A DNA stretch of 64,000 bases from an uncultured Candidatus Saccharibacteria bacterium (GCA_964425445.1 CAYRLY010000001.1:5537-69536), one strand, 5' to 3'; shown: positions 14,765-40,535, counted from the first letter of the stretch. The notes: generated by a model from the letters alone, not told the origin. Translations and numbers: made by a program.

Positions 14765-16927
14765 ATGAAGGAATTTTCTATAAAAAGTTGGTTTAGAAAA
14801 TACTGGCCGCTTGTCGGCTATTTTTTGATTTCGATAATATTCCTCTATCCGGTTCTGATTCAAAGGGGAGTACCGTTTAAATATGATTGGCTTTGGCCCC
14901 TTTTTGATATGAATGAATATTGGCGGGTGATCGCCGACAAGAGTAGCTTTGGTCTGGTTTCATCACTTGGGAAATATGCCAATTCTTTCTTCGGCCTCTT
15001 TGGTTGGTTGCATATTTCGCCAAATATTGCCCTTAAAATATTTTTACTCCTGATCCATACTGCCTCTGGTTACGGTTTTTATCTCCTGGTTTCTAGAAGG
15101 ATCAAATCAGCCGCCGCTGCATTTATCGCCGGTATCGCCTACGCTTTTTCGCCCTATATATTTATTCGAACGATCGTCGGATTTATATATTCATTGATCG
15201 CTTATGCCTCATTGCCGTTTTTCTTAAATATCTTTATAAACCATAAGAAGAAAAAAATCCTTGATTTTCTGCTGATGGGTTTACTTTTTTCTTTGGTAGC
15301 TTCACAGATTCAGGCGGGGATACTTCTGGTGTTTCTGGTGATCGTCATCAGCTTCTCCGAGAGAAAGAAGATTGTATTTCGATTAAAAGAGCTTGTCCTA
15401 TTGTTAGCTTCTGTCTTGATCGTCGCTTTGCCTTGGATTATTTACCTTCTGTTTATCGGTGGCAATGTGCAACCCATTGATGGTGGGCAGGTGACGACGC
15501 TAAATTATATCGCCAATTTGCCTCATAGTTTGCGTAATGTATTGTTTTTCTCTGATCACATAATTACCAGGGATTACTTTTATTCATTTGCCAGAGAGCC
15601 GATAGTAATCATCGGTTTTGTTCTTTTTTATCTGGTTGCTCTATTTTCACTCTTCGATAAAAAGAACCGATCCCTCGTGCTCTCCCTGATAATTTCGACC
15701 TTGATAATAATTCCATTTTCTATCGGGCCGACCAAAATTTTCACCGGTTTTTACACCTTCGTCTTCAATCATCTTTCGCAGCTGGCTGTCTTTCGCGAAA
15801 CCTATCATTTCCAGTTTCTGCTCTCGTTTAACTTTATCGCCTTATTTGCCTTTGGCCTTTCGTATATTTTCAAAAATTTAAGCAACAAAAGACCCTTCTT
15901 CTGGCTGATAAAAGTAATTGCTGCCTCATCAATAATAATTGTGATTGCACCTTATTTGGGTCTTGATTATGCCGGCTATTTTCGCCTTCAAGAGATTCCA
16001 GATGAATACCATCAAGCAGATGAGTTTTTTCAAGAAAACGCCGACTATTGTAAAAAAGCTTATTACCCACCAAACTTGGGATTTGTCCGATTCGCTTCTG
16101 ACCCGACAGCAGAAACTAGTGCCTCAAACTCGGATATTATTGCTTGGGATTTTGGCTTGCCTCGAGTAACCGATGCCGCCTCAGTTTTGTCGATCGCCGG
16201 TGATGAAATGTATCAGCGCAATCATCTGACGTCACAATTTTTGGAATTTTCTGACAATGGTGAATTTGCCGCTCTGGCCAAGGAGCAGGGAGTTGACTGC
16301 GTCATCATCCGTGATGATCTTACTAGCTTATATTTTTTGGCGAATAATGTCTGGCGTGATCCGTCATTTGATGTTCGCTTGAAGTGGATGAATCAAGATA
16401 TGTTGTCATTGGCCGAAAGTAAGATCGGTCTTCGTCTTGATAAAAAATTCGGGGGCAAAATTTACCTTTATAAAGTTGAGTCAGATAAGAAATATGAGGC
16501 AAGTAGGTTGATCGATCAAGTTCCCGATGGCATAAAATTGCCAATTACTGATTGGGCGAATAATTATGATTGGTATACCGAGGGTTGGGCGAGGGGACGG
16601 TACAATTTTTGGCGCAAACACCTTTTTGCTCAACTTGCACAGGATTTTATTTATACAAACAAATCCGACTCCGAAGTTAGCGGAAAGATCGCCGAGAGCG
16701 GCTCCTATGACCTGGTAATTAGATATTTGGATGGAGGAGAGGAGGGGAAATTCGAAATCCGAATATCGAAATTCGAAACAATTATCGAGAAAAAATCGGG
16801 GGAAGAAAGACTTGTCGTCAAAAATCTTGGAGCGATTGATATCAAGAAAGGCGATACAATCACAATTAAAAATACATCTGGCGAGAACGCTATCGCCGAT
16901 CTGTTGTTGGTCGGGAGTAAGGAGTAA
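14765..16927 (+). CDS. large polytopic membrane protein with a C-terminal extracytoplasmic domain (YfhO/GT-C-like), hypothetical
   Basis: Start at ATG 14765 preceded by GAGGGAG. The ORF track start at 14594 lies inside the upstream GC-rich gene and terminator and is rejected. About 13 TM helices followed by a soluble domain of about 250 aa. Confidence 0.55.
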   Translation: MKEFSIKSWFRKYWPLVGYFLISIIFLYPVLIQRGVPFKYDWLWPLFDMNEYWRVIADKSSFGLVSSLGKYANSFFGLFGWLHISPNIALKIFLLLIHTASGYGFYLLVSRRIKSAAAAFIAGIAYAFSPYIFIRTIVGFIYSLIAYASLPFFLNIFINHKKKKILDFLLMGLLFSLVASQIQAGILLVFLVIVISFSERKKIVFRLKELVLLLASVLIVALPWIIYLLFIGGNVQPIDGGQVTTLNYIANLPHSLRNVLFFSDHIITRDYFYSFAREPIVIIGFVLFYLVALFSLFDKKNRSLVLSLIISTLIIIPFSIGPTKIFTGFYTFVFNHLSQLAVFRETYHFQFLLSFNFIALFAFGLSYIFKNLSNKRPFFWLIKVIAASSIIIVIAPYLGLDYAGYFRLQEIPDEYHQADEFFQENADYCKKAYYPPNLGFVRFASDPTAETSASNSDIIAWDFGLPRVTDAASVLSIAGDEMYQRNHLTSQFLEFSDNGEFAALAKEQGVDCVIIRDDLTSLYFLANNVWRDPSFDVRLKWMNQDMLSLAESKIGLRLDKKFGGKIYLYKVESDKKYEASRLIDQVPDGIKLPITDWANNYDWYTEGWARGRYNFWRKHLFAQLAQDFIYTNKSDSEVSGKIAESGSYDLVIRYLDGGEEGKFEIRISKFETIIEKKSGEERLVVKNLGAIDIKKGDTITIKNTSGENAIADLLLVGSKE
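16748..16778 (+). repeat. in-frame heptanucleotide tandem repeat (CGAAATC / CGAATAT / CGAAATT units) inside the membrane protein gene
   Basis: aaattcgaaatccgaatatcgaaattcgaaac, translated GKFEIRISKFETI. Confidence 0.6.
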
Positions 16928-16945
16928 GGAGTAGGGAGTGGGTGG
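16913..16945 (+). repeat. GGAGTAA heptamer tandem repeat straddling the stop codon of the membrane protein gene
   Basis: gggagtaaggagtaaggagtagggagtgggtgg; the TAA stop at 16925-16927 lies inside the repeat. Confidence 0.55.
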
Positions 16946-18193
16946 TTAGACTCTAGTTCTTTTTCTCCGTCGAATGAGGATTATGAGGACTGCAAGGAGC
17001 GCAAGAGCAAGCACTCCGGCAGCGATGGTTATTATCAGATTATAATTTTTACTATCTTTAACCGCTTCAGCAACGCTTTTTGGTGGGTTTATATCATCCT
17101 CAGTCAAAATATTTATCGATCCACCTTTGGCTTGTGAGATTTCGAAGATAATCTCATCACTAACGGGTGTCAATACCTTCTCTTTCTGCCCTTGGACACT
17201 GAGTTTATAATGGCCGGCGGGTATAAAATAATCCATCTCGAGAGTGAAATTGCCATCCTCGTCAGACTCAATCTCAAGTTTTTTACCCTCTGGGAGTGCT
17301 GGCGTTGGGGTTAGAGTGATTTTAGCTAAATAATTTGGCTCGATGATTCCGGAGATCTTCAGCCCAGAGACGGTGCCATCATCAATCTTGTTTATAAAAT
17401 TTTCCATCTTCTCGATCTTGATCGATCTTGGTTTACTTAGATTCTCATCTACTTTCGGATCAGGCTCTTTGATATTTATCTGAAAATGGGTTGTAGAGCC
17501 CCAACCGTCAGCATTTTGCGCTCGAATATGAAAATAATGAGTCCCAACCGGTTGATTGTCATAGCTTGCAGAGGTGTTGGCTGATGTCGATTTTGCCGGC
17601 GGGGTTGTCGTTGCGTTTTGATCGAGAAGATAAGAAAATGCGGTGACACCAGATGCTTTCGTCCATGAAAGGTCAATTTTGGTTGCTTCGTAGGATTCTG
17701 CTGGATTTGGATGAGATGATGAAGTCACATTTATTGCTCCCGGAGGCGTTGGTGCTCGGGTAATTGAATAGGAAGCGCTTCCTGCACCGGTACCAACTTC
17801 GGCACCGTCATTCGCCATCCGCACAGAGGATACTGTCACCGCTCCGCTACCGACTCCGGTCGCTTTTAGTCTTATTGTCGCCACCCTCATCGAAGAGACT
17901 GCCGGCACCAGCATCCCCTTGAAGTGGCCCCCGTTAGCTGGGATTGAAATCCAAGTTGCTCCGCCAGCGGCGAAAGAAACAATCGATACCGGCCCAGAGA
18001 CCGATATTGTTCCCTCGATGGCATTAAAAGTTGCCCCCGAAGCATCAACAGTGACAGTAAATGTCTGACCGACGGTCACGTTTCCGCCACCAGAAGCATA
18101 AATACCGGCTGCTGCTGCGTTCATTGGCAATATTAGAAAATAAAATACACTCGAAACAGTCAGCATTGTCGAAATCAGTCTTTTCATCAGCAT
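16946..18193 (-). CDS. cell-surface protein with signal peptide, Ig/FN3-like beta-rich domains and a C-terminal TM anchor with basic tail
   Basis: N-terminal hydrophobic leader; Thr/Ser-rich beta repeats; C-terminal IITIAAGVLALALLAVLIILIRRRKRTRV. Confidence 0.5.
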   Translation of the reverse strand: MLMKRLISTMLTVSSVFYFLILPMNAAAAGIYASGGGNVTVGQTFTVTVDASGATFNAIEGTISVSGPVSIVSFAAGGATWISIPANGGHFKGMLVPAVSSMRVATIRLKATGVGSGAVTVSSVRMANDGAEVGTGAGSASYSITRAPTPPGAINVTSSSHPNPAESYEATKIDLSWTKASGVTAFSYLLDQNATTTPPAKSTSANTSASYDNQPVGTHYFHIRAQNADGWGSTTHFQINIKEPDPKVDENLSKPRSIKIEKMENFINKIDDGTVSGLKISGIIEPNYLAKITLTPTPALPEGKKLEIESDEDGNFTLEMDYFIPAGHYKLSVQGQKEKVLTPVSDEIIFEISQAKGGSINILTEDDINPPKSVAEAVKDSKNYNLIITIAAGVLALALLAVLIILIRRRKRTRV

Positions 18194-20322: not shown

Positions 20323-22218
20323 ATGAAAGATTTACTAAAAGATTTAAATAGTGCGCAGCAAGAAGCGGTCCGAACTACCGAAGGGCCGGTTTTAATTTTA
20401 GCTGGGGCAGGGAGCGGTAAAACTCGGGCATTGACTCACCGCTTGGCTTATCTAATTTCTGAGAAAAAAGTTTCCCCGACGAACATTTTGGCAGTTACTT
20501 TCACCAATAAAGCAGCGGGAGAAATGAAACAGCGGACAGAAGCGCTGCTAGCCGAAAGCCCTAAGTCGAAAGTCGAAAGTGCGAGGAGTATTCTTCCGTG
20601 GCTGGGAACCTTTCATTCAATTTGTGTAAAAATTCTGCGCCGAGAGGCAAAGCATATCGGTTACCCCTCAGGCTTTACGATTTATGATAGTCAGGATCAG
20701 CTTTCGGTTGTCAAGAAAATTATGCAAGATAAGGGGATCGACCCCAAACATTACAACCCAAATGCCGTTCTTCATTTCATTTCTGGGGCAAAAAACGAAT
20801 TTATCTCTCCTGAGGGTTACGAAAAGTATGTTAACTCGCCGTTCGAAGAAGTAGTCTCGACTGTCTATAAGGAATATCAAAAGTATCTTAAAACTGCTTT
20901 TGGTATGGATTTTGATGATCTTTTGGTTTTGTGTCTTAAACTTCTGACTGAGAACAACGAGATTTTGCAGAAATACCAGAATATTTTTAAATATATTCTG
21001 ATTGATGAATATCAGGACACAAATCACGTTCAATATCTTTGGGCGAAGTTGTTGTCAGAAAAGAGCAAGAATATTTGTGTTGTGGGTGATGATTCACAAT
21101 CAATTTACGGTTTTCGCGGGGCAAATTTTCGCAACATTCTCAATTTTGAGCGTGATTTTCCAGGGGCGAAAGTAATAAAACTAGAACAAAATTATCGCTC
21201 GACCGGTAATATTTTACGAGCAGCTGATGAACTCATCAAATATAATAAACAGAAGACTGAGAAGACTCTGTGGACCGAAAATCCAGTAGGATCTCCACTT
21301 CTTGTATACCAGGCGTTGAATGAAAAAGATGAAGCCGAATTTGTGGCGATGGAGACCAGGGGGCTGGCGGCAGTTTCGGGTAAATGGTCGGATTTTGCCG
21401 TCCTCTACCGTACCAACGCTCAATCGCGAGCAGTAGAGGAAGCTTTCATTCGCTTTGGCATTCCATACCGAGTAGTTGGTGGAATCCGTTTTTATGAGCG
21501 TAAAGAGATAAAAGATATCTTGGCTTATCTTAAATTAATTGCCAATCCTAATGATCGAGTATCTTTTGAGAGGATCGTAAACGTTCCAGCAAGAGGGATT
21601 GGATCAAAAACCCTGATAAAATATTTCTCTGGCCTATCCGGTCTAAACCCTGAAGTTCCGGAAAAGATTCAAAATTTTTTAGATATGGTACATCTTATCA
21701 GGGACAAGGCAAAAGAGCTTTCTGTGGCTGATCTGATAGATTTGATAGCAGAAAATAGCAGCTACAAGGAGTATATTTTGGATGGTACTCCGGAGGGCGA
21801 GGGGCGCTACGAAAACATCATGGAGTTAAAATCTGTTGCCGCATATAACGATGCCTTGAGCCTCGAAAAACCGCTAGAAAACTTTCTGGAAAAAGTCGCG
21901 CTGTATCAAGATGCCGATGATTATGATTCCAATTCAAACGTTGTTACTCTGATGACATTGCATGCTGCAAAAGGCTTGGAATTTAAAAATGTTTTTTTGG
22001 TTGGTGTCGAAGAGGGAATTTTACCACATTCTAGAAGTGTCGGAGATCAGAGTGAGGTAGAGGAAGAGAGACGACTTTGTTATGTAGGCCTCACCAGGGC
22101 GATGAAGAAGCTTTACATCTTATATGCCTCCGAGAGAATCTATTTCGGCAATCCGCAGATTAACCAGCCTTCGAGGTTTATTTGTGAAATACCCGACGAT
22201 GTCAAAAAAGAGTTATGA
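20323..22218 (+). CDS. pcrA: ATP-dependent DNA helicase PcrA/UvrD (compact, 631 aa)
   Basis: LNSAQQEAV...AGAGSGKTRALTHRLAYLI Walker A and UvrD motifs throughout. Confidence 0.88.
   Translation: MKDLLKDLNSAQQEAVRTTEGPVLILAGAGSGKTRALTHRLAYLISEKKVSPTNILAVTFTNKAAGEMKQRTEALLAESPKSKVESARSILPWLGTFHSICVKILRREAKHIGYPSGFTIYDSQDQLSVVKKIMQDKGIDPKHYNPNAVLHFISGAKNEFISPEGYEKYVNSPFEEVVSTVYKEYQKYLKTAFGMDFDDLLVLCLKLLTENNEILQKYQNIFKYILIDEYQDTNHVQYLWAKLLSEKSKNICVVGDDSQSIYGFRGANFRNILNFERDFPGAKVIKLEQNYRSTGNILRAADELIKYNKQKTEKTLWTENPVGSPLLVYQALNEKDEAEFVAMETRGLAAVSGKWSDFAVLYRTNAQSRAVEEAFIRFGIPYRVVGGIRFYERKEIKDILAYLKLIANPNDRVSFERIVNVPARGIGSKTLIKYFSGLSGLNPEVPEKIQNFLDMVHLIRDKAKELSVADLIDLIAENSSYKEYILDGTPEGEGRYENIMELKSVAAYNDALSLEKPLENFLEKVALYQDADDYDSNSNVVTLMTLHAAKGLEFKNVFLVGVEEGILPHSRSVGDQSEVEEERRLCYVGLTRAMKKLYILYASERIYFGNPQINQPSRFICEIPDDVKKEL
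20551..20588 (+). repeat. GTCGAAA heptamer tandem repeat, in frame in pcrA
   Basis: ctaagtcgaaagtcgaaagtgcgagg, translated PKSKVESARS. Confidence 0.55.
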
Positions 22219-22249
22219 TATAATGTTTGTTGCTGATTAAAATTTTCAA

Positions 22250-23227: not shown

Positions 23228-23275
23228 ATTAGATAAATCTTAATTGATTAATTAGCTGTCGATCGCGTATAAGCG

Positions 23276-23563: not shown

Positions 23564-24406
23564 ATGAATAGACAAGAGCTGATAGATTATTTGCGCGCAA
23601 ACCAGATCTGGGCCAAAAGAACCATGGGTCAGAATTTTTTGGTTGATGAGCAAGCGCTGGCGCAAATAGTTGCTGCTGCTGATATTCAGTCTACAGATAC
23701 AATTGTTGAGATCGGCCCTGGCCTGGGGGTATTAACAGCGGAATTATCTAAACGTGCTGGTAAAGTGATCGCGATTGAAAAAGATGACAAATTTGCTGAT
23801 GTTTTAAAAACTCAATATTTAAATTCAAATGTCGAGATAGTTCATCAGGATGCATTGAACTTTGAACCTAACACTTATGGACTCATAGCCGAGAGCTATA
23901 AACTAGTTGCAAATATTCCATATAATATTACCTCTTTAATTATTCGAAAATTTTTGGAGGAAGAGGATAAGCCGGAGATGATGATTTTATTAGTCCAGAA
24001 GGAAGTCGCCGAAAGAATTATCGCGGAACCGGGTGATATGTCGCTTCTCGCTGTGTCTGTTCAATTCTATGCAGAGGTAAAGATTGTAGCAATTGTACCC
24101 AAGGAATCGTTTTTTCCTATTCCGAAGGTCGATTCGGCGATTATTAAGCTGAAAGTCAAAAGCCAAAAGCACAAAGTACAAAGCAGGGAATTTTTTCGAA
24201 TCGTGAAGTTTGGTTTTGCCGCCAAGAGGAAAACTCTGGAAAATAATTTATCTGCTGGCATGCATATTAAAAAGGATGATGCCCGTGATATAATTAAAAA
24301 AGCTGGTTTTGCTCCGAATATCAGAGCTGAAGGCTTAAGTGTTTTAGATTGGTTAAAATTATTTGAAACTTTGAAGGAGGGGAAAAGTGGACAAAAGAAA
24401 GTATGA
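23564..24406 (+). CDS. rsmA: 16S rRNA (adenine1518-N6/adenine1519-N6)-dimethyltransferase
   Basis: MGQNFLVDEQAL...IVEIGPGLGVLT KsgA signature. Confidence 0.9.
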   Translation: MNRQELIDYLRANQIWAKRTMGQNFLVDEQALAQIVAAADIQSTDTIVEIGPGLGVLTAELSKRAGKVIAIEKDDKFADVLKTQYLNSNVEIVHQDALNFEPNTYGLIAESYKLVANIPYNITSLIIRKFLEEEDKPEMMILLVQKEVAERIIAEPGDMSLLAVSVQFYAEVKIVAIVPKESFFPIPKVDSAIIKLKVKSQKHKVQSREFFRIVKFGFAAKRKTLENNLSAGMHIKKDDARDIIKKAGFAPNIRAEGLSVLDWLKLFETLKEGKSGQKKV

Positions 24407-28150: not shown

Positions 28151-29590
28151 ATGAAAAAAGTTTTTTACATCACAACCCCGATTTATTACATTAATGATGT
28201 ACCTCACATCGGTCATGCTTACACAACAGTTGCCGCTGACGTTCTTGCTCGTTATTACCGAGGCAAGGGAGAAGATGTCTTTTTTTTGACTGGTGTTGAC
28301 GAACACGGCGCGAAAATTTCCGAAGCGGCGAAGAAGGCCGGGTTGGAGCCAAAAGATTTTGCAGATACATTGGTGCCAAGATTTCAAGAAGCGTGGAAGA
28401 ATTTAAATATCGAATATTCGGAATTTTTTCGAACGACTGACCCGAAACACGAAGAAATTGTCAAAAAACTGATACTTGACCTCAAAGAGCGCGGTTACGT
28501 TGAAAAGAAAAAATATACAGGCCTTTATTGTACGGCCTGTGAAAAATTTCTGTTGCCAGATGAGCTCAAGGACGGGAAATGCCCGGATCATGGAACCGAA
28601 CCGGAGAAACATTCTGAAGAGAATTATTTCTTTCTGCTCTCAAAACTTACCGATAAATTATTGAAGGTCGTTGAATCCGGAGAGGTTGCAGTTTTACCAC
28701 AGTCACGTAAAAACGAGGTAATCGGAAAAATTAAATCCGGGCTTGAAGATGTTTCAATCTCGCGCGAAAAAGTTGAATGGGGGATACCGTTTCCGGGTGA
28801 TGATTCACAGACAATTTATGTTTGGATTGATGCGCTGATAAATTATTGGTCTGCGACCAAAATTTATCAAGTCGAAAGTCGCAAGTCGAAAGTCGCAAGT
28901 GATGGAATCTGGCCGCCGGACATTCATCTAATGGCCAAAGATATACTTTGGTTTCACGCAATCATTTGGCCGGCGATGCTGCTGGCGCTAGATATACCTC
29001 TACCCAAAAAAGTTTTTGCTCACGGATTTTTCACCGTTGGCGGGCAGAAGATGAGTAAAACTCGTGGCAATGTGCTTGACCCGAATAAATTGGTTGAGAA
29101 ATTTGGAGCTGACGCCGTTCGCTATGCTCTACTGCGCGAATTTCCTTTCGGCGAGGACGGCGATATTTCCGAAGAGAAAATTGCTCATCGTTATCAATCC
29201 GAGCTTTCAAATGGGTTAGGGAACCTGGTACAGAGAACAATAAGTATGGTTAATAAATACAATGTCGAAATCCGAAATCCGAATGACGAAAAAAATCCGA
29301 AATCCGAACTGGGAAAAATCGGGAAACTTGTTGAAGAATTGAAATTTGATCAAGCATTGCAAGAAGTTAATAGTGAAATTACAAGGTTAAATCAATATAT
29401 TGAAGAAAATAAACCCTGGGAACTGGCAAAGAAAAGCAAAGATGAACTTGTTTTAATTTTGACTAAAGTGTATCAAGCATTGGAATCTTTGGTCTTGCCA
29501 TTGTCGATATTTATGCCGCAGACGGCGGAGAAGATGAAAAAACAACTCGAAGTTCTTGAACCAGAGCCTTTGTTTCCAAGAATAGACTAA
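28151..29590 (+). CDS. metG: methionyl-tRNA synthetase (compact form)
   Basis: PIYYINDVPHIGHAYTTVAADVLARY (HIGH); KMSKTRGN (KMSKS); zinc knuckle CTACEKF...CPDHG. Confidence 0.92.
   Translation: MKKVFYITTPIYYINDVPHIGHAYTTVAADVLARYYRGKGEDVFFLTGVDEHGAKISEAAKKAGLEPKDFADTLVPRFQEAWKNLNIEYSEFFRTTDPKHEEIVKKLILDLKERGYVEKKKYTGLYCTACEKFLLPDELKDGKCPDHGTEPEKHSEENYFFLLSKLTDKLLKVVESGEVAVLPQSRKNEVIGKIKSGLEDVSISREKVEWGIPFPGDDSQTIYVWIDALINYWSATKIYQVESRKSKVASDGIWPPDIHLMAKDILWFHAIIWPAMLLALDIPLPKKVFAHGFFTVGGQKMSKTRGNVLDPNKLVEKFGADAVRYALLREFPFGEDGDISEEKIAHRYQSELSNGLGNLVQRTISMVNKYNVEIRNPNDEKNPKSELGKIGKLVEELKFDQALQEVNSEITRLNQYIEENKPWELAKKSKDELVLILTKVYQALESLVLPLSIFMPQTAEKMKKQLEVLEPEPLFPRID
28868..28900 (+). repeat. 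GTCGAAA/GTCGCAA heptamer tandem repeat (4 units), in frame in metG
   Basis: aagtcgaaagtcgcaagtcgaaagtcgcaagtg, translated QVESRKSKVASDG. Confidence 0.6.
29264..29308 (+). repeat. CGAAATC heptamer repeats (two pairs), in frame in metG
   Basis: gtcgaaatccgaaatccgaatgacgaaaaaaatccgaaatccgaa, translated NVEIRNPNDEKNPKSE. Confidence 0.55.
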
Positions 29591-31565: not shown

Positions 31566-32827
31566 AAAGAATATACTTAGATAATTCAGCTACTACTCCG
31601 ACCGATCCGGAGGTTTTAAAGGTAATGTTACCGTGTTTTTCTGATGATTTTGGTAATCCTTCGTCGATTCACAATTTTGGTCAAAGTGCTAGATCAGCAA
31701 TCGATGAGTCAAGGGTAACAATTGCCAAGTTTCTAAATTGCAAATCAACGGAAATAATTTTTACTTCCGGCGGTAGTGAATCGGATAATCTCGCCCTAAA
31801 GGGCGTAGTTGAAAGTCTAAAGCCTCAAGTTAAAAACCGAAAGCCTCATGTGATTACTAGTGCTTTTGAACATCATGCAGTTTTGGATACCATTAAAGAG
31901 TTGGAAAATGACGGAGTGGTTGAAGCCACATACATTAAGCCCAATTCTGACGGGATAATTAAAACTGGAAGTGTTGAAAAAGCGATCAAAAATAATACCG
32001 TTCTAATTTCAATTATGTATGTCAATAATGAAATCGGTACGCTCCAGCCGATTAGAGAGATCGGACAGATGATTGAAAGAATCAATGAAGCAAGGAGTAA
32101 GAAGCAAGGAGTAAAAAGTGGAAACAAAATCCTTACTTCTAACCCCATACTTCATACTTCTGAAAATTCGTCGCGGATTTTTTTTCATTCAGACGCGGTT
32201 CAGGCGGCAGAATATTTTGAGATGAATGTTGATTATTTACATGTTGATCTACTTTCGATGTCAGCACACAAAATTTATGGACCAAAAGGTATCGGCTTGC
32301 TTTATATTCGTTCTGGAACGCCGATAAAACATCAGATTGTCGGAGGCGGTCAAGAATACAAAAAAAGGGCGGGAACGGAAAATGTGCCGGGAATTGTTGG
32401 CTTTGCGAAAGCAGTAGAATTAATAAATTCTAAATCCGAATATCGAAATTCAAAATTCAATATTCAAGAACTTTGTGATAGATTAATTGATGGTTTGTTA
32501 GAAATTCCAAAATCAAGGTTAAATGGTAGTCGGGAGCAAAGAAGTCCGGCGAATGTAAATATCTCGTTTTTAAATGCCGAAGGAGAGTCGATTTTGCTGA
32601 ATCTGGATATGGAGGGCATTGCTGCTTCAACCGGCTCTGCCTGTACTTCCGGATCGCTCGAGCCGTCGCATGTGCTTTCCTCATTGGCTTTGCCGCCAGA
32701 GGAATGCCATGGTTCGGTTCGTTTCACACTTGGAAGACAAACTAGCGCTGAAGAAATTGATAAAGTTATTTTGGCAATGAAAAATATTGTTGAGAAATTA
32801 CGCAAAATGAGTCCATTAAAAATTTAA
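31562..32827 (+). CDS. iscS: cysteine desulfurase (IscS/NifS class)
   Basis: IYLDNSATTPTDPEVL start; PLP-lysine SAHKIYGPKG; C-terminal GSACTSGSLEPSHVL active-site Cys loop. Confidence 0.9.
   Translation: MKRIYLDNSATTPTDPEVLKVMLPCFSDDFGNPSSIHNFGQSARSAIDESRVTIAKFLNCKSTEIIFTSGGSESDNLALKGVVESLKPQVKNRKPHVITSAFEHHAVLDTIKELENDGVVEATYIKPNSDGIIKTGSVEKAIKNNTVLISIMYVNNEIGTLQPIREIGQMIERINEARSKKQGVKSGNKILTSNPILHTSENSSRIFFHSDAVQAAEYFEMNVDYLHVDLLSMSAHKIYGPKGIGLLYIRSGTPIKHQIVGGGQEYKKRAGTENVPGIVGFAKAVELINSKSEYRNSKFNIQELCDRLIDGLLEIPKSRLNGSREQRSPANVNISFLNAEGESILLNLDMEGIAASTGSACTSGSLEPSHVLSSLALPPEECHGSVRFTLGRQTSAEEIDKVILAMKNIVEKLRKMSPLKI
32088..32119 (+). repeat. GGAGTAA-containing 11-mer direct repeat, in frame in iscS
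   Basis: gcaaggagtaa-gaa-gcaaggagtaa-aaagtgg, translated EARSKKQGVKSGN, in a low-complexity insertion. Confidence 0.5.
32428..32468 (+). repeat. CGAATAT / CGAAATT / CAAAATT heptamer tandem repeat, in frame in iscS
   Basis: ttctaaatccgaatatcgaaattcaaaattcaatattcaag, translated NSKSEYRNSKFNIQE. Confidence 0.55.
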
Positions 32828-32865
32828 AATCCCGCCATGGGCGGGAGTCGGTCTTGCGGCATGAG

Positions 32866-33129
32866 TTACGCCGCAGGGAAGATAGTGCGGAAGCGCTCGA
32901 TGACCCGCTCGGTCATCTCAGTACCGTAGGTCTCGCGGTCGGTAGCGTCTCTGACCCCGTCAGTCTCGTGGTCCCAGCACTGGTCGAGGTATGAGGAACC
33001 GCAGGGGTTGGTCTCGCCGATATTCGAGCGAATATGCTCTTCGGTGAGCTCCCCCCCATCCTCTTCGGTGATCCTCTTCGCGCGTACGAGCATGCCGTCA
33101 ATCTGTTCGTCAGAAATACTGCTTCTCAT
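32866..33129 (-). CDS. GC-rich small acidic hypothetical protein (87 aa)
   Basis: ORF track; GC-rich; flanked by the cccgccatgggcggg and tgcggc-atgagttac-gccgca hairpins on the iscS side. Confidence 0.35.
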   Translation of the reverse strand: MRSSISDEQIDGMLVRAKRITEEDGGELTEEHIRSNIGETNPCGSSYLDQCWDHETDGVRDATDRETYGTEMTERVIERFRTIFPAA

Positions 33130-33207
33130 GGCGTTTCCTCCGATTTAGTTTTGGACGCTAAATATTTGTAACATAAAATAATAAATCTGTCAATAATAAG
33201 GAGTAAA

Positions 33208-33624
33208 ATGGAAAATATATATAGCGAAAAAATTATGGATCACTTTCGCAACCCGAGAAATCTTGGGGAAATTGCTGACGCCGATGGTGTTGGTGTTGTT
33301 GGCAACCCAAGGTGCGGTGATGTGATGAAAATGTATATTAAAGTCGAAAGTCGAAAGTCGCAAGTCGGAAAGACCGAGGAATTTATCAGAGATATTAGAT
33401 TCCAAACTTTGGGCTGCGGAGCGGCGATCGCTTCCTCGTCAATAGCGACCGAGATGGCAAAAGATAAAACTCTTGATGAAGCGCTAAAAATCTCCGGTAA
33501 GGACATTTCACGTGAAATGGGCAAATTCCCCCCGGCAAAATTTCATTGTTCGATCTTAGCTGAAGAAGGAATAAAAAAAGCCATCGCTGATTATAGAAAA
33601 AACGAAGTAAGGAGAAAAAAGTAG
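33208..33624 (+). CDS. iscU: Fe-S cluster assembly scaffold protein (IscU/NifU N-terminal domain type)
   Basis: MDHFRNPRNLGEI...GNPRCGDVMKMYIKV...FQTLGCGAAIASSS; all three conserved Cys present. Confidence 0.85.
   Translation: MENIYSEKIMDHFRNPRNLGEIADADGVGVVGNPRCGDVMKMYIKVESRKSQVGKTEEFIRDIRFQTLGCGAAIASSSIATEMAKDKTLDEALKISGKDISREMGKFPPAKFHCSILAEEGIKKAIADYRKNEVRRKK
33340..33372 (+). repeat. GTCGAAA/GTCGCAA heptamer tandem repeat, in frame in iscU
   Basis: aaagtcgaaagtcgaaagtcgcaagtcggaaag, translated KVESRKSQVGK. Confidence 0.6.
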
Positions 33625-33626
33625 GA

Positions 33627-34430: not shown

Positions 34431-35566
34431 TGAAGCTAGCTGTTGCGATGTCCGGAGGCGTTGATTCTTCGGTAGTAGCTAAAATTTTAAAAGATCAGGG
34501 CCACGATCTAGTCGGTTTATTTTTAAAGATGTGGTCTGACCCGACCTGCTCAGCTAAAAAGGAGAATCGTTGTTGTGACTACGAAGCGCTTGAGGATGCA
34601 AGAGTAGTAGCAAAAAGTCTTAATATTCCTTTTTATGTTATTAATGCTGAAAAAGAATTTAAGAAAATGGTTGTCGATTATTTCCTTGATGAATATAAGA
34701 ATTTACGGACTCCAAACCCCTGCGTTGTTTGTAATAAAAAAATCAAATTTGATCTTCTTTTGCGCAAAGCGCTAGGGATTGATTGTGACAAGTTGGCAAC
34801 CGGACACTACGCCAGAATTGTCGAGGACAATTCTGGAATTTCTAAATTCGAAATCCGAAGCACGAAACAAAAAAAATCAAATTTCAAACTATTAAAAGGA
34901 ATTGACGAAACAAAGGACCAATCCTATATGCTTTATTCTTTAAATCAGGATCAACTTGGGAAAATTATCTTCCCTATTGGAGGAATGAGGAAAAAAAATG
35001 TTCGGGATTTAGCGATTAAATGGAATCTCCCAGTTAAGGAAAAGCCGGAGAGCCAGGAGATCTGTTTTTTCGCTGATAGAGATTATCGCTTATTTTTAAA
35101 AAGATATTTGCCGAAGAAATATTTTCGATCAGGTGACATTGTTGATACTAATGGTAAAAAAATTGGAAAACATGAAGGCTTGATAAATTACACAATTGGA
35201 CAGCGGAAAAGGTTGGAGCAAGAAGTATGGAGCAAGAAGTATGGAGATAAAAAACCATTATATGTTATCGGATTTGATATCAGGAATAATCAGTTAATCG
35301 TTGGCGAGGACAAAGATGTTTATTCGGATAAAATGGTGGTGACAGATTTAAATTTTATCCATGATTCACAATTCATAATTCATTATTCTAATCTTACAGT
35401 GAAGATTCGCTATCAACATCCGGCTGTGGAGTGCCAGATTGAAAATATTTCTAACAAAGAACTAAAAGTAAAATTCAAAAAATCCCAGAGAGCAATAACC
35501 CCGGGTCAATCAGCAGTGTTTTATCTAGAGGACGAGGTCATTAGTGGCGGAGTAATTGAATCTTAG
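34430..35566 (+). CDS. mnmA: tRNA-specific 2-thiouridylase
   Basis: KLAVAMSGGVDSSVVA PP-loop; catalytic Cys residues; C-terminal beta-barrel. Confidence 0.9.
   Translation: MKLAVAMSGGVDSSVVAKILKDQGHDLVGLFLKMWSDPTCSAKKENRCCDYEALEDARVVAKSLNIPFYVINAEKEFKKMVVDYFLDEYKNLRTPNPCVVCNKKIKFDLLLRKALGIDCDKLATGHYARIVEDNSGISKFEIRSTKQKKSNFKLLKGIDETKDQSYMLYSLNQDQLGKIIFPIGGMRKKNVRDLAIKWNLPVKEKPESQEICFFADRDYRLFLKRYLPKKYFRSGDIVDTNGKKIGKHEGLINYTIGQRKRLEQEVWSKKYGDKKPLYVIGFDIRNNQLIVGEDKDVYSDKMVVTDLNFIHDSQFIIHYSNLTVKIRYQHPAVECQIENISNKELKVKFKKSQRAITPGQSAVFYLEDEVISGGVIES
34835..34868 (+). repeat. TTCTAAA/TTCGAAA/TCCGAAG heptamer-like repeat, in frame in mnmA
   Basis: ggaatttctaaattcgaaatccgaagcacgaaac, translated SGISKFEIRSTKQ. 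Confidence 0.5.
35214..35243 (+). repeat. tandem duplication of the 15-mer GGAGCAAGAAGTATG, in frame in mnmA
   Basis: ggagcaagaagtatg occurs twice, translated LEQEVWSKKYGD. Confidence 0.6.
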
Positions 35567-35639
35567 ATAGTTGCACATTCTACTTTATCTTTTTTTTAAT
35601 TTATTTAAAAACCCCGACGCAATGATCGGGGCGGGGCTG

Positions 35640-36206
35640 TCATCCGCTAGTGACCTTCTGGGCCAGGCGGATGATCTCTGATAGAGGGTGGTGCCGACGC
35701 ATCCTCAGCACCGACCATGGGAGACGTATGTCTCTGGGTTCAGGATTCGAGGAGGTGCTGACCACCGGTGTTCCATCATTGGTCTCTTCAGACTCAGGGC
35801 CAGGCTCTAGATATGGGAGGTCGATTACCGGCATGCCATCCTCGGCCTCCTCGGGCGTGGTAGCGAAGACGATCAGACGTTTCTTGATCTCCTCGATCGT
35901 CTCGCCGGTGATCTTGGCGATCTTATCAAAAGGAATCAGATCGGTGACGACACCCGCCGGTACCGGTCCGCCGGAGGCAATATCCCCGGCATTGTGTTGG
36001 AGAAATACAACATCGCCAACACCGAGCCGGAAGGTGATCCGACTGGCGGCTCGAATCGCCACGATCTCCTGTTCTTTGCCACTTATATCGGGGAATGGTA
36101 TGAACTCTACTCCACAGTCGGCGGTTCCGATTATGGGGCTATCCGACACAACGACGATTCTACCTTTGCCCATTCCAAAGACTCCCTTCGGGGGATTCAT
36201 GCTCAA
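35640..36206 (-). CDS. GC-rich hypothetical protein (188 aa)
   Basis: Protein-like minus-strand ORF (GVFGMGKGRIVVVSDSPIIGTADCGVEF...). The overlapping plus-strand ORF is Ser/Arg/Pro-rich, as expected for a wrong frame in GC-rich DNA. Confidence 0.4.
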   Translation of the reverse strand: MSMNPPKGVFGMGKGRIVVVSDSPIIGTADCGVEFIPFPDISGKEQEIVAIRAASRITFRLGVGDVVFLQHNAGDIASGGPVPAGVVTDLIPFDKIAKITGETIEEIKKRLIVFATTPEEAEDGMPVIDLPYLEPGPESEETNDGTPVVSTSSNPEPRDIRLPWSVLRMRRHHPLSEIIRLAQKVTSG

Positions 36207-36308
36207 GATTTTTATAACATAATACTAAAAAATAGTCAATGGTTTTTTCGGTAACTGCCCCCATTACTATCATTATTTAGAGGATCTCTCGACAAAGCTC
36301 GAAATGTA

Positions 36309-36345
36309 CACCTATTCCCACACCCCGTAGGTGTGGGAATAGGTG
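36309..36345. repeat. perfect 16-bp inverted repeat (hairpin / palindromic protein-binding site) upstream of recG
   Basis: cacctattcccacacc-ccgta-ggtgtgggaataggtg; no T-run follows. Confidence 0.55.
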
Positions 36346-36459
36346 TGAGAACCCCGTGCTTGAACAAGTCAAGAGATCCTTCACTATGTTCATGATGACA
36401 CAAGATCGAGTGAGCAGTTATTTTTGGTGCCAATTGTTGCTTTGTTGTACAATTAAGCC

Positions 36460-38511
36460 ATGGAAATAACTCTAAAAACCAAAGTCCAGTATCTCAAAGG
36501 CGTCGGGCCGAAAATGGCCTCGAGGTTAGATCGACTGGGGATTAAAACAATTTACGACCTCATCTTTTATTTTCCTAGGACATATTGTGATTATTCCAAA
36601 ATTACCAAAATAGCCGATCTAACAATTTCTAATTCCGAATTTCTAATTTCTAATGAATATCAAAACCCAAATGTTAAAACAATAAAGGCCAAAATCATCA
36701 ACATCGCTAATCGAAGAACATCTAGACGTAGATTCACGGTTACTGAAGCGGTAGTTGCCGACGAAACTGGCAGTATAAAAGTAGTTTGGTTCAATCAACC
36801 GTATCTGGAAAAAATGTTAAAAGCTGGCAGAGAGATTATTTTAAACGGGAAAGTTAGAAGAAGCAGTTATTCCGGTGAGTTGCAGATGGAGTCGCCAAAT
36901 AGGGCTGATAAACCAAAGATTGTGCCGGTTTATTCGGAAACTGTGGGCATATCGAGCTACTATATACAGAAGTTAGTAAAATCTGTCAGCTGTCAGCTTT
37001 TAGTTGTCAGAGAATACCTTCCGGAAGAAATTATTAAAAAAAATAATTTAGTAGGGATATCGGCTGCGATTTCCGAACTGCATCAGCCGACAAGTACGGA
37101 AAAATTAGGAGAGGCTAGAGATCGGATGGCTTTTGATGAACTTTTTCTTTTTTCTCTTCAGAAACAGCTGTTGAAAAAAGATATTTTAATTCACGGTTCA
37201 CCAAAGATTGAGATAGACGAGGATTTTTTAAAAAAGTTCACCAAATCTTTGCCTTTTGAACTCACCGGAGCGCAGAAAAAAACGGCGTGGGCTATAATAA
37301 AAGACTTAAACTCCGATAAGCCGATGAATCGGCTCTTGAACGGTGACGTTGGTTCAGGCAAAACTGTGGTCGCAGCGATGGCGGCGGCTTTAGTGGTTAA
37401 ATCTGGCCTGCGGGTGGCAGTGATGGCACCGACAGAAATTTTAACACTTCAACATTATGAGACCTTAAAGAAGATATTACCCTCATTCTCGATTTCAGTC
37501 GGTTTAGTTAGCGGAAGCAAAAAGGAGCTTGTGGATGCGGAGATTGTTGTTGGTACTCATGCACTGATTAGCGGAAAAACTATTCAAAAAAATCTTGGTT
37601 TAGTAATTATTGACGAGCAACATCGTTTTGGTGTCCAGCAGAGAGAAAAACTTTTGCAAACGAAAACTAGTCGACGTCCGCATTTTCTTTCAATGACGGC
37701 GACGCCGATCCCGAGGACAATGTCACTAGTATTATTTGCCGATTTAGATGTTTCAGTAATTGATGAAATGCCGAGAAACCGCAAAAAAATTATTACAAAA
37801 GTAATTGCTGGAGATCGTCGCAAATCAGCCTACAATTTTATTCGAAAAGAGATCGATGAGGGCCATCAGGCGTTTGTTATTTGTCCATTGATTGAGGAGC
37901 AAGAGAAAGTGAGCGGAAAGTTAGAGATTTTCGAAGAGGATAGAAAAGCAGTGCTCCATGAATACAAAAAACTGAATGAGGAGATTTTTCCCGGTGCCAA
38001 AATCGCCATGCTTCATGGGAAGATGAAGTCAGGGGAGAAGGAGAGAGTGATGGCAGATTTTCGGGAGAAAAAATTTGACATTTTGGTGTCTACATCGGTG
38101 GTCGAGGTTGGAGTCGATATTCCTGGAGCGACGATTATGATGATTGAAAACGCCGATCGTTTTGGGCTTGCCCAACTTCACCAATTCCGTGGTCGTGTCG
38201 GCCGATCTGATTTACAGTCGTATTGCCTTCTCTTCTCATCATCGATGAGCGAAAATGCTCGCAAGCGGCTGAAGTATATGGAAAATATTCATTCTGGTTT
38301 TGAGCTAGCAGAAAAGGATCTAAAACTGCGAGGCCCAGGGGTTTTGTATGGCTACAAGCAGTCTGGTTTCTGGGATTTCCAGTTCGCCAGTTTGAATGAT
38401 AAAATAATGATAGAGAAAGCGACAGAAGCGGCCAAGACAGTCATTGGCGAAATTGAAAAATATCCACTGATATTAAAGAAGATTAGTGATAGATCAAAAC
38501 ATCTTGAGTAA
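36460..38511 (+). CDS. recG: ATP-dependent DNA helicase RecG
   Basis: N-terminal wedge/OB domain; helicase motifs GDVGSGKTVVA and DEQHRFG; QFRGRVGR. Confidence 0.9.
   Translation: MEITLKTKVQYLKGVGPKMASRLDRLGIKTIYDLIFYFPRTYCDYSKITKIADLTISNSEFLISNEYQNPNVKTIKAKIINIANRRTSRRRFTVTEAVVADETGSIKVVWFNQPYLEKMLKAGREIILNGKVRRSSYSGELQMESPNRADKPKIVPVYSETVGISSYYIQKLVKSVSCQLLVVREYLPEEIIKKNNLVGISAAISELHQPTSTEKLGEARDRMAFDELFLFSLQKQLLKKDILIHGSPKIEIDEDFLKKFTKSLPFELTGAQKKTAWAIIKDLNSDKPMNRLLNGDVGSGKTVVAAMAAALVVKSGLRVAVMAPTEILTLQHYETLKKILPSFSISVGLVSGSKKELVDAEIVVGTHALISGKTIQKNLGLVIIDEQHRFGVQQREKLLQTKTSRRPHFLSMTATPIPRTMSLVLFADLDVSVIDEMPRNRKKIITKVIAGDRRKSAYNFIRKEIDEGHQAFVICPLIEEQEKVSGKLEIFEEDRKAVLHEYKKLNEEIFPGAKIAMLHGKMKSGEKERVMADFREKKFDILVSTSVVEVGVDIPGATIMMIENADRFGLAQLHQFRGRVGRSDLQSYCLLFSSSMSENARKRLKYMENIHSGFELAEKDLKLRGPGVLYGYKQSGFWDFQFASLNDKIMIEKATEAAKTVIGEIEKYPLILKKISDRSKHLE
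36624..36654 (+). repeat. AATTTCT heptamer tandem repeat (reverse complement of the CGAAATT family), in frame in recG
   Basis: aatttctaattccgaatttctaatttctaat, translated ISNSEFLISN. Confidence 0.55.
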
Positions 38512-38533
38512 CTTGAATCATAAATGATTTGAG

Positions 38534-39016
38534 ATGAAAGATTTATTTGAAAAATACAGCAATTGGATCGGACTGGGACTGATAATTTTATCGCTCATTG
38601 GTGGGACATTATTAATAATGAAAAAAGGTACTCTGGCGGGGGAATCGAACAAAAATTCGCTGATGGAAGAAAAAAATCAAAAAATCTCTGAACTTGAAAA
38701 TAAAATTACTGATTTAGAAGGCCAAATTGAACAGTTAAAATCTGCCACACCGTCTGCGGATTCACAACCGGCGACTTCCCCATCTCCGTCGGCATCTCTG
38801 ACGCCTACTCCAAGTCAAGCTGCCGGCAAGATTAATATTAATACTGCAACTGTCGTTCAGCTTGACTCACTGCCAGGTATTGGCCCGGTCTACGCCCAGC
38901 GGATAATTGATTACCGAACTGCTAATGGCCCTTTCACCTCAATAGACCAGGTACAGAATGTAAAAGGTATAGGCCCGAAGACTTTGGAAAAATTTCGTGA
39001 TCTAGTGACGATTTAG
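38534..39016 (+). CDS. comEA: ComEA-family helix-hairpin-helix DNA-binding / competence protein
   Basis: N-terminal TM helix; C-terminal INTATVVQLDSLPGIGPVYAQRIIDYRTANGPFTSIDQVQNVKGIGPKTLEK double HhH. Confidence 0.85.
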   Translation: MKDLFEKYSNWIGLGLIILSLIGGTLLIMKKGTLAGESNKNSLMEEKNQKISELENKITDLEGQIEQLKSATPSADSQPATSPSPSASLTPTPSQAAGKININTATVVQLDSLPGIGPVYAQRIIDYRTANGPFTSIDQVQNVKGIGPKTLEKFRDLVTI

Positions 39017-39057
39017 TCTGGACATTTTGGACAATAACGGGTACAATTTTGCTGTTT

Positions 39058-39144
39058 GGGCGTATGGTGGAATTGGTAGACACGCATGCCTTAGGAGCAT
39101 GTGGAGTAAAATCCATGGGGGTTCGAGTCCCTCTACGCCCACCA
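39058..39144 (+). tRNA. tRNA-Leu (anticodon TAG)
   Basis: 87-nt cloverleaf with acceptor gggcgta/tacgccc, anticodon loop cuUAGga, long variable arm, T-arm ggggg-ttcgagt-ccctc and encoded CCA. Confidence 0.85.
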
Positions 39145-39203
39145 AGCTGAGGAAGTAATTCGTTTAGTTTTTCGGCTTGGTGAGTGCAATATTTCGGGGA
39201 CGA

Positions 39204-39292
39204 GAAAGCCGGAGGCGCGACTGGCGCCGAGGCGGGGTCGAGCGAAATTTCAGCAGAAATTTACGCGTGACCGAGTCCCTCTACGCCCACCA
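39204..39292 (+). other. conserved GC-rich structured element (copy A) ending in a 21-nt direct repeat of the tRNA-Leu(TAG) 3' end. Possibly a miniature integrative element, an att remnant or a tRNA-linked small RNA.
   Basis: gaaagccggag + hairpin + gaggcggggtcga + hairpin with a CAGCAG loop + gtgacc + cgagtccctctacgcccacca. The last block is identical to 39124-39144. Confidence 0.6.
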
Positions 39293-39537: not shown

Positions 39538-39635
39538 TAACCCATAATTATAATATATCTCGTACCTTTTTCTTCTAAATTTGTGAGCCGTGTGTTTCTG
39601 GCTCTTTTTATTTTGTCCCTTAGATGTTATAATTT

Positions 39636-40535
39636 TTGCCAATGAAAAAAGAGCGGAAAATCATTTGTATTGTTGGCCCGACGGCCAGCGGAAAAACTGG
39701 CTGGGGGGTTTCTGTTGCCAGGAAGTTCAATGGTGAGATTATTTCAGCTGATTCTAGGCAGGTTTACCGTGGTTTAGATATTGGCACAGGTAAAGATCTC
39801 GAGGACTATCGTGATGTCAAATATCATTTAATTGACATTTGTGAACCGGGTGTATATTTTACGATGTTTGATTGGCTTGAGCGCGCCAGAGAAATTATTG
39901 AAGATATTTTTACTCGTGGCAAAACACCTATTATTGTTGGAGGGACAGGGTTATATGTTCAAGCATTGATCGAAGGATTTGAGCTAAAAGTCGAAAGTCA
40001 AAAGTCGAAAGTCAAAAGATATCGGAGGGAGGAACTGGAATCTAAGTCGCTAGAAGAATTGCAAAAAATCATTTTTAAATTGAAAATTTTAAATTCTAAA
40101 TTGGATATGAATAATCCTCATCGAATAATCCGGGCAATTGAGAAAGTCCAGTCCGGTGAAATTGCTAATAAAAAGAAACCGGATTTTCAAGCATTGCAAA
40201 TTGCTATCGATCTACCACGCGATGTTTTATATGATCGAATAGATCAAAGAGTTGAAGAGCGTTTTGAACAGGGAATGCTGGAAGAGGTAAAAAGCTTGAT
40301 TGCCTCTGGAGTTGATAAAAAATGGTTGCTTGGATTGGGGCTTGAATATCGAATTATTGGTAGATTTGTGCTAGGTGAAAATAACCAAATCTTTGATGAG
40401 ATGAAACAGGAACTTAAATACAAAATTCATGCTTTTGCCCGACGCCAGCTAACTTGGTTTCGGCGTTTTCCGGAGATTGTTTGGTGTAACGATTTAAAAT
40501 CGGCTGAAGAAGAAATTAAAAAATTTCTGATATAA
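39636..40535 (+). CDS. miaA: tRNA dimethylallyltransferase
   Basis: IICIVGPTASGKTG P-loop and SADSRQVYRGLDIGTGK. Confidence 0.9.
   Translation: MPMKKERKIICIVGPTASGKTGWGVSVARKFNGEIISADSRQVYRGLDIGTGKDLEDYRDVKYHLIDICEPGVYFTMFDWLERAREIIEDIFTRGKTPIIVGGTGLYVQALIEGFELKVESQKSKVKRYRREELESKSLEELQKIIFKLKILNSKLDMNNPHRIIRAIEKVQSGEIANKKKPDFQALQIAIDLPRDVLYDRIDQRVEERFEQGMLEEVKSLIASGVDKKWLLGLGLEYRIIGRFVLGENNQIFDEMKQELKYKIHAFARRQLTWFRRFPEIVWCNDLKSAEEEIKKFLI
39987..40018 (+). repeat. GTCGAAA/GTCAAAA heptamer tandem repeat (4 units), in frame in miaA
   Basis: aaagtcgaaagtcaaaagtcgaaagtcaaaag, translated KVESQKSKVK. Confidence 0.6.

Follow-up and report, generated by a model that had tools for sequence, protein, structure and literature searches.

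Repeats with a unit of seven nucleotides (nt) form the most abundant class of long simple sequence repeats (SSRs) in many bacteria (Mrazek et al. 2007, as quoted in PMC4679880 and PMC4692102). According to the same two papers, a 7-nt contact of the polymerase has been proposed as the cause of this abundance, and units that are not triplets are rare in coding DNA. In essential genes such repeats are expected to be purged, because slippage by a single unit shifts the reading frame. Yet we found about 19 heptamer arrays, all in frame, in nine genes or at their ends, over 23 kb of a 64,000-nt stretch of DNA (GCA_964425445.1 CAYRLY010000001.1:5537-69536, filed under an uncultured Candidatus Saccharibacteria bacterium; this whole stretch is called the window in the following). 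A MetG-based scan of species genomes placed the window in Candidatus Berkelbacteria, within Patescibacteria. A literature search found no paper on heptamer repeats in Patescibacteria. We consider it fairly probable that the arrays are heptanucleotide microsatellites, i.e. long SSRs with a 7-nt unit, whose turnover is filtered by selection.

The GGGAATC/GGGGAYT repeats of Xanthomonas and Nostoc (Rehm et al. 2015, PMC4692102) prefer about four units, lie between open reading frames (ORFs) and vary among close species; they are G-rich and capable of forming quadruplexes. The TAACTGA repeats of Beggiatoaceae, Cyanobacteria and Bacteroidetes (MacGregor 2015, PMC4679880) occur in ORFs only in their stop-free orientation and have a scattered distribution whose transfer route is not known. 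Most of them precede start codons at a short distance, and a function in regulation was proposed for them (PMC4679880).

The arrays of the window share features with each of these systems. With the 7-nt long SSRs, including the short tandemly repeated repetitive (STRR) sequences of Calothrix and Nostoc, they have in common tandem units in few copies at many loci, over-representation, variability between relatives, and an origin without explanation for which polymerase slippage has been proposed. As portrayed in the two papers, these SSRs are mainly a feature of large genomes of free-living bacteria and mostly intergenic, whereas the arrays described here belong to a very small genome and are for the most part in frame in housekeeping genes. 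All window arrays lie in ORFs or overlap ORF ends, at variance with the mainly intergenic placement of the class. With the GGGAATC repeats the arrays share the size of about four units as well as variation of length and sequence at the same loci between close species. However, the window units are A-rich and lack G-tracts, such that their preference for about 4.6 units is not due to quadruplexes. With the TAACTGA system they share the stop-free orientation in ORFs and the scattered phylogenetic distribution. That system uses one unit near starts, while here many units are found in gene-internal positions with no link to start codons. No TAACTGA array was found in the window, the nearest being CTGTCAG in recG; the relatives L008 and L015 have arrays of the TCAGTTR type, which is TAACTGA in reverse complement. 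By analogy, the best explanation is that the arrays are of the same kind as the cyanobacterial STRR, the Xanthomonas/Nostoc GGGAATC and the Beggiatoaceae TAACTGA repeats. What is new here are A-rich heptamer arrays that lie mostly in frame inside conserved housekeeping genes of a very small genome.

Rickettsia palindromic elements are in-frame mobile insertions of about 100-150 nt that are palindromic and similar over their whole length. Like the arrays, they are selfish-looking DNA in frame at surface-exposed or tolerant parts of conserved proteins, but the arrays are about 33 nt long, non-palindromic, and share only the 7-nt unit and no common flanks. Contingency loci are phase-variable SSRs that switch surface or restriction-modification genes via frameshifts and are polymorphic within populations. 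Both kinds of repeat lie inside ORFs and have unit lengths that are not a multiple of three; the window arrays differ in that they sit in essential housekeeping genes, all in frame, with no frameshifted allele seen. The arrays are thus neither insertions of the Rickettsia palindromic element type nor contingency loci.

Heptamer arrays in housekeeping genes

Arrays were located using Tandem Repeats Finder and direct translation of the window ORFs. An earlier note on this DNA, made from the sequence alone, had listed twelve arrays as lying in frame within coding sequences. All of them (12/12) were recovered at the coordinates where it had put them, each inside an intact ORF. It had also spoken of at least nine affected genes while naming only eight; the number holds, with an rsmA-like ORF as the ninth. 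NCBIfam identified the host proteins as PcrA, MetG, IscS/NifS, IscU/NifU, MnmA, RecG and MiaA, and gave only a weak MmpA-like match for a membrane protein of 777 residues. The window has about 40% G+C, and nearly all of its genes are on the + strand. All sites have a period of 7 or 14, with 2.1-6.6 copies arranged head-to-tail. The arrays span 26-45 nt and have only the unit in common; they are direct repeats and, as had been stated before, not palindromic. The following arrays were found:

16747..16778 (+), membrane protein gene (14594-16927): CGAAATY-type array, 4.6 copies; peptide KFEIRISKFE
16913..16945 (+), end of the membrane protein gene: GGAGTAA array containing the stop codon TAA (16925-16927)
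20551..20588 (+), pcrA: GTCGAAA-type array with perfect core 20563-20580; peptide SPKSKVESARS
24152..24185 (+), rsmA-like gene (23564-24406): AAAGYMA array; peptide KVKSQKHKVQS; newly found
28868..28900 (+), metG site 1: perfect 14-mer (CAAGTCGAAAGTCG), 2.4 copies, 33 nt; peptide QVESRKSKVAS
29264..29308 (+), metG site 2: compound CGAAATC array with blocks 29266-29283 and 29293-29308; peptide VEIRNPNDEKNPKSE
31808..31846 (+), iscS: decayed GAAAGTC-type array; newly found
32087..32119 (+), iscS site 1: 14-mer GAAGCAAGGAGTAA, 2.3 copies
32146..32160 (+), iscS: CATACTT, 2.1 copies, within a 72-nt insertion; newly found
32428..32468 (+), iscS site 2: CGAAATY/CAAAATT array; peptide SKSEYRNSKFNI
33340..33372 (+), iscU: AAAGTCG, 4.6 copies; peptide KVESRKSQVGK
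33604..33624 (+), C-terminus of iscU: weak array of three units, GAAGTAA/GGAGAAA/AAAGTAG, holding the stop codon TAG (33622-33624); newly found
34835..34868 (+), mnmA site 1: AATTTCT/CGAAATC array inside a 45-nt insertion; peptide GISKFEIRSTK
35214..35246 (+), mnmA site 2: perfect 14-mer TGGAGCAAGAAGTA, 2.4 copies, 33 nt
35355..35392 (+), mnmA site 3: CATAATT array; peptide HDSQFIIHYS; newly found
36624..36654 (+), recG site 1: AATTTCT array
36983..37010 (+), recG site 2: CTGTCAG array; peptide SVSCQLLVV; newly found
39986..40018 (+), miaA site 1: perfect 14-mer AAAAGTCGAAAGTC, 2.4 copies, 33 nt; peptide KVESQKSKVK
40073..40102 (+), miaA site 2: TTTTAAA/TTCAAAA array; peptide IFKLKILNSKL; newly found

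The GGAGTAA array straddles the stop codon of the membrane protein gene, in agreement with the earlier description, and occupies the entire spacer to a convergent gene, whose stop codon is at 16946-16948. The array at mnmA site 2 had been taken for the duplication of a 15-mer, which the perfect 14-mer corrects. The array of iscS site 1 opens the 72-nt insertion (approximately 32096-32167), which is lineage-specific. The array-spanning peptide of MetG reads QVESRKSKVASDG. As had been recognized before, the periodicity resides at the DNA level: the 7-nt unit is read through all three frames, which gives peptides with a period of seven residues.

Three main unit families occupy 4-5 sites each. 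The earlier view that all units reduce to a single family did not hold up: GTCGAAA and CGAAATY can both be written as NNCGAAA, while GGAGTAA/GAAGCAA, CATAATT, CTGTCAG and TTTTAAA are separate units.

At a score of at least 8 the window contains 16 period-7 segments, compared to 1.15 in block shuffles, while periods 5, 6 and 8-11 give 2-6 segments each; a stricter self-match threshold gives hits at periods 7 and 14 only. As singletons outside arrays the unit heptamers are not enriched, with 64 occurrences of family A (AAAGTCG-type) outside arrays vs 77 expected for the whole window, a comparison that the earlier note had proposed. About half of all family A occurrences fall in array DNA, which makes up 1% of the window. 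Two independent assemblies of the same strain (L087 and L088) carry the iscU, mnmA site 1 and mnmA site 2 arrays at 100% identity. A trivial explanation would be that the arrays are low-complexity assembly errors, or lysine- and glutamate-rich loops that merely look periodic. In favour of such an explanation, the arrays are short, with about 4.6 units, and, like the coding strand, rich in A. However, identical arrays come from independent assemblies of several samples and pipelines, the count far exceeds that of the shuffles, other periods are not enriched, and selection at the protein level cannot yield perfect 7- or 14-nt repeats. On these four grounds artefact and chance are refuted, and we give them practically no credence.

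The arrays are clustered: 14 of the 16 period-7 segments fall within 23.4 kb (16900-40100) of the 64-kb window (binomial P = 4e-5). No arrays occur at 40-64 kb, where the genes are equally conserved (AlaRS, ribosomal protein S1, MreB, FtsA-like, YceG). The array-rich part is slightly higher in G+C (41-46% vs 33-40%).

Every array site is an indel hotspot in orthologue alignments. Alignments to orthologues and to PDB structures agree with the placement in loops or insertion-tolerant positions that had been proposed from position. At about half of the sites the array constitutes a net insertion, and these arrays fall at gaps of the solved homologues:

PcrA: +9 residues vs 2pjr_A
MetG site 1: +10 residues vs 2csx_A
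IscS site 1: +24 residues vs the close relatives L371, L372, L373 and L001; the alignment to 9wep_A breaks over about 30 residues (169-200)
IscS site 2: +5 residues (+15 nt) vs the close relatives L001, L371, L372 and L373
IscU: +9 residues vs 4eb5_C (canonical IscU)
MnmA site 1: +14 residues vs 9hln_A (+14/15 overall)
RecG site 1: +13 residues vs close relatives; +39 nt vs L371 and L373

To these sites the term insertion, which had been applied to all arrays, can be restricted. Length-neutral arrays are found at metG site 2, both miaA sites, mnmA sites 2 and 3, in the rsmA-like and membrane protein genes and at recG site 2. Thus miaA site 1 shows no net insertion vs MiaA 3d3q_A, mnmA site 2 adds merely 6 nt vs close relatives, the rsmA-like array, also found in L372 and L373, has the length of its orthologues, and the membrane protein array is of equal length in L010, the sole orthologue compared.

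For IscU, 119 homologues were scored: the loop has 15 residues in 22 of them and 24 residues, mostly non-repetitive, in 43. In an AlphaFold model (mean predicted local distance difference test score 88) the residues encoded by the array (45-55) lie distally in an extended beta-hairpin (predicted strands 38-50 and 56-67) and outside any disordered loop. According to this model the array would extend the hairpin away from the core. We also considered a faster evolution of the array residues, which was rejected since the difference was not significant (4/12 vs 23/118 variable positions).

Two of the host proteins are shortened relative to their profiles. PcrA (20323-22218) has 631 residues and matches positions 1-635 of the 725-position TIGR01073 profile, with the C-terminal part missing; MetG (28151-29590) has 479 residues and is without the C-terminal tRNA-binding extension of its 648-position profile. 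Neither protein reaches the curated cut-off for equivalogs.

Turnover between sister lineages

We compared the window with the sister lineages L001-6 and L371-373 at 72-96% nucleotide identity. At a given site a relative may lack the array, share it, or have one built from another unit, such that sister species hold different arrays at the same sites. Position and rough length of orthologous arrays are kept while the units are species-specific. At metG site 1 the window has the unit AAGTCGM, whereas L009 has AAAGTCA and L020 has AAAGTKA; GATGGA follows all three arrays, and TATCAA precedes those of the window and L009. In the iscU loop, seven species have seven variants of the unit. The CATAATT array of mnmA site 3 is shared with L019, while L001, L372 and L373 have AAAAGCY arrays instead. 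Arrays are also present at mnmA site 1 in L013 and L373, and the 15-nt core of mnmA site 2 recurs in recG of L372. The pcrA array is common to L019 and missing in L017 and L025. The decayed iscS array at 31808-31846 is better kept in L001-6, L372 and L373, where it reads VVESLKSKVES.

The segments of iscS site 1 (72 nt), iscS site 2 (15 nt) and mnmA site 1 (45 nt) are missing in several relatives. L371 has no array in iscU (27 nt) or at metG site 1 (30 nt). Over the syntenic 15.8 kb we counted 10 arrays in the window, 5 in L372, 9 in L373 and 2 weak ones in L371. At recG site 1 L372 and L373 differ by exactly 21 nt, i.e. three units. In none of the assemblies compared was a copy out of frame. 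The earlier note had expected the arrays to be slippage-prone and variable in length. Length and unit indeed differ between species, but in relatives at 82-96% nucleotide identity the iscU and metG site 1 arrays have the same copy number and only few substitutions (two for metG site 1 in L372 and L373). For iscU the copy number is constant across 17 proteins of 88-100% identity. Among the strains L001-L006 the only indels were a 15-nt hairpin-type element and a 6-nt indel, neither of which is heptameric. In the C-terminal domain of mnmA (L001, around position 5223) a 15-nt in-frame segment (SHPELIEGSG) separates L001, L003 and L004 from L002 and L005. These strains are 95-98% identical and the segment lies within a locally diverged patch, i.e. 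a patch-wise replacement of a hairpin element at a loop.

The comparison bears on the possibility that arrays are retained for a function, be it as binding sites of a heptamer-binding (e.g. cold-shock-domain) protein, through mRNA structure or translation speed, or as useful peptide extensions. Cold-shock proteins were raised as heptamer binders (PMC4679880). The differences between the iscU arrays of the window and L001-6 are all synonymous, arrays persist at the same sites over deep divergence, and the iscU array is predicted to be an ordered hairpin extension. On the other hand, unit, orientation and presence vary freely among close relatives at the same site, L371 is nearly array-free in the syntenic region, and the IscU array residues are not less variable than the rest of the protein. 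Furthermore, the host genes share nothing but tolerant loops, and stop-bearing arrays accumulate in spacers and gene ends, as junk would. We therefore regard a function as quite improbable.

Heptamer repeats visibly contribute to the variation of loops and tails in the core proteins of Patescibacteria. On the practical side, they alter the length of proteins, interrupt alignments of nucleotide sequences and may lead annotation and the comparison of strains astray.

Unit-wise growth or copying

If the arrays are microsatellites under a selection filter, as we favour, they would arise and turn over at the DNA level through unit-wise duplication and loss, i.e. slipped-strand mispairing with a strong preference for the 7-nt register. 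Re-homogenisation of short tracts would be a probable contributor. The filter itself is shown by the data: in this small, gene-dense genome, where non-coding DNA is scarce, arrays persist only in harmless places, namely surface loops, hairpin tips, C-terminal ends and short spacers. Within genes, selection passes only lengths that keep the frame and units without in-frame stops on the sense strand. The arrays would be transcribed and translated as short hydrophilic peptides with no dedicated function.

Array lengths cluster at 17-18, 25-26 and 30-32 nt (7n + ~4), and hardly any array exceeds 34 nt in the Patescibacteria genomes examined. Compound long arrays in metagenome contigs (L090, L102, L116 and L159, among the matches listed) contain runs of units that are one base apart. 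Length clustering and runs of variant units are both what unit-wise duplication from a short seed typically yields, and the difference of exactly three units between L372 and L373 at recG site 1 is a further sign of such growth. A preference for 32 nt in coding vs non-coding DNA (a "+21 nt" rule) was not significant (27/79 vs 7/33).

In the clade we counted 123 arrays, of which 80 are in long open frames and 41 outside ORFs. Since non-ORF DNA makes up about 15% of the total, arrays are approximately two-fold enriched in non-coding DNA, although the majority is still coding; this is the comparison of coding with intergenic DNA that had been suggested earlier. In 28/80 coding arrays the consensus unit has a stop triplet when read in sense, compared to 48/80 when read in antisense and about 50% for random heptamers. 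Outside ORFs 37/41 arrays have a stop on at least one strand, a figure that is partly circular because stop-bearing arrays cannot sit in ORFs. At recG site 1 the variant unit AATTCCG abolishes the TAA that a perfect AATTTCT array would put in frame. Stop-bearing units are found in spacers or end genes, as at 16913 of the window and in the iscU tail of L019.

Several observations weigh against microsatellite turnover. Four perfect 14-mer arrays exist with 2.3-2.4 copies, all of 32-33 nt, and one duplication of 14 nt would shift the frame. Simple slippage changes whole units only, such that neither length-neutral overwriting nor the replacement of patches fits. About half of the arrays are nevertheless length-equal to non-repetitive orthologous segments. 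A clean patch of about 40 nt separates L372 from L373 at metG site 2, with a net change of +3 nt: L373 has a perfect (GAAAGTC) x4.6 and L372 a non-repetitive, outgroup-like sequence. AAAGTCG recurs at unrelated sites in pcrA, metG, iscU and miaA, and GRAGYAA at four window sites that are not linked, plus recG of L372, with no other occurrence in 1.4 Mb of relatives. Close relatives show no copy-number polymorphism for iscU or metG site 1. Finally, the 7-nt register and the clustering of arrays in 23 kb are without explanation.

These points lead to the most interesting alternative, in which patches of about 30-45 nt are written from other arrays of the same genome instead of having grown in place. 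The routes would be short-tract ectopic conversion or template switching, or a dedicated templated-insertion activity, and the arrays would form an ultra-small dispersed repeat family. The patch swap at metG site 2 is consistent with it: L372 and L373 are about 93% identical across metG-mnmA, including the flanks of this site, and the new patch is a perfect array of a unit that this genome already has in iscU, metG site 1 and iscS. The metG site 1 and miaA arrays are moreover alike in architecture ((AAGTCGAAAGTCNN) x2.4, both 33 nt), the GRAGYAA family is lineage-specific and at unlinked sites, loops are overwritten by arrays at unchanged length, and in these genomes there is a sharp upper limit at about 33 nt.

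The distribution beyond the window bears on both readings, the excess of period 7 being in favour of microsatellites. Period-7 arrays are common in related loci (0-10 per ~20 kb), where periods 5, 6 and 9-11 are nearly absent; they are absent from the Chloroflexota loci and from most Elusimicrobiota loci. Patescibacteria loci totalling about 600 kb have 112 segments of period 7 vs at most 16 of any other period. Four exact AAAGTCG units occur in at least 120 metagenome contigs with, among the matches listed, 32-72% G+C; these contigs have, again among the matches listed, 199 period-7 arrays vs at most 10 for any other period. Since (AAAGTCG)n is also found in 50 viral contigs, it is not specific to one lineage, as copying would allow. 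We considered AAAGTCG and CGAAATC to be special among heptamers, which was rejected: scrambled controls gave 3, 9 and 78 hits in viral contigs vs 50 and 22 for the real units, and the comparison is too noisy because one sample dominates the control with 78 hits. The units are thus not evidently special, which argues against copying. Likewise, unit families were not significantly genome-specific in a permutation test across genomes (p = 0.08-0.36), and the similarity among units only slightly exceeds that of random heptamers matched in composition. The arrays showed neither a flanking signature nor a target duplication or conserved element boundary, and no candidate enzyme was identified, while length quantisation and blocks of variant units suit local growth. 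Taken together, copying is a live rival and not a finding, which we hold possible but rather doubtful. A selfish short element or a targeted insertion process, which the earlier note had raised, is likewise no more than possible.

A broader version, by which arrays, perhaps across bacteria, are written as templated patches of about 30-45 nt that keep the segment length and thereby overwrite loops in frame in one step, appears unlikely to us. If true, such patches would be an unrecognised class of ultra-small dispersed repeat or repair-associated mutational mechanism, and would account for part of the lineage-specific loop sequences in proteins of the candidate phyla radiation. For the choice between microsatellite slippage and templated copying, a question that dates from the first report of heptamer over-representation, the locus offers a natural experiment on the birth of repeats: clean patches between close relatives could separate the two.

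A discrete mobile element around the AATTTCT arrays was considered as well, with several copies followed by CAAATCTCAAATCCCAATGA-like sequence. It was rejected, since extending the search revealed no boundaries and no more than a loose similarity of heptamers. A protein search using (KVESRKS) x6 returned 3 significant hits only, because short arrays cannot reach significance.

Possible recombination, hairpin elements and other features

Among the metagenome matches listed, (AAAGTCG)n reaches up to 310 nt (L140, 605-914; also L090, L112, L122, L125 and L126; 43-66% G+C). In five high-G+C contigs (58-66%) the AAAGTCG unit is therefore far richer in A+T than its host.

Along 21500-39250 of the window the identity to L372 and L373 is a mosaic of 70-96% by segment, with 94-96% in iscU, 93% in the 3' part of recG, 82% in metG and 70% in an Nramp gene. 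BLAST blocks end at the array sites 32076/32171, 34812/34912 and 36731. This pattern points to related lineages having recombined at breakpoints that coincide with arrays or lie close to them.

IscU homologues that are 93% identical to that of the window (P0015-P0019 and P0024) carry different heptamer-derived C-terminal tails (...KLQTNYKLQ, ...FEARNSKS). In the relatives with variant tails the iscU-folD spacer has 80-100 nt and is filled with heptamer arrays (L372 10391-10520, L373 10365-10520); in the window folD begins 2 nt past the iscU stop codon.

L007, L008, L012 and L019 have hairpin-type in-frame elements at the loop sites of metG, iscS and mnmA that are occupied by arrays in the window, which itself has no such element. 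Their peptides in relatives include HPELVSGSNKNEIPDQVRNDK, SHSREDGNPLKEDPRLRGDD and DSRLRGNDK. L007, L008 and L019 have 3-4 copies of the element core GGAATGACA per locus, while L012 and the 64-kb window have none. By analogy, these elements of the relatives resemble Rickettsia palindromic elements in their behaviour.

An Rfam search gave no match overlapping the arrays. Elsewhere in the window it found an S-adenosylmethionine (SAM) riboswitch (RF00162, 52 bits) at 12123-12228, upstream of an ORF at 12284-13450. The window also contains eight tRNA genes, at 39058-39141, 43731-43802, 44590-44791, 46648-47117 and 50338-50422, four of which are close together at 46.6-47.1 kb.

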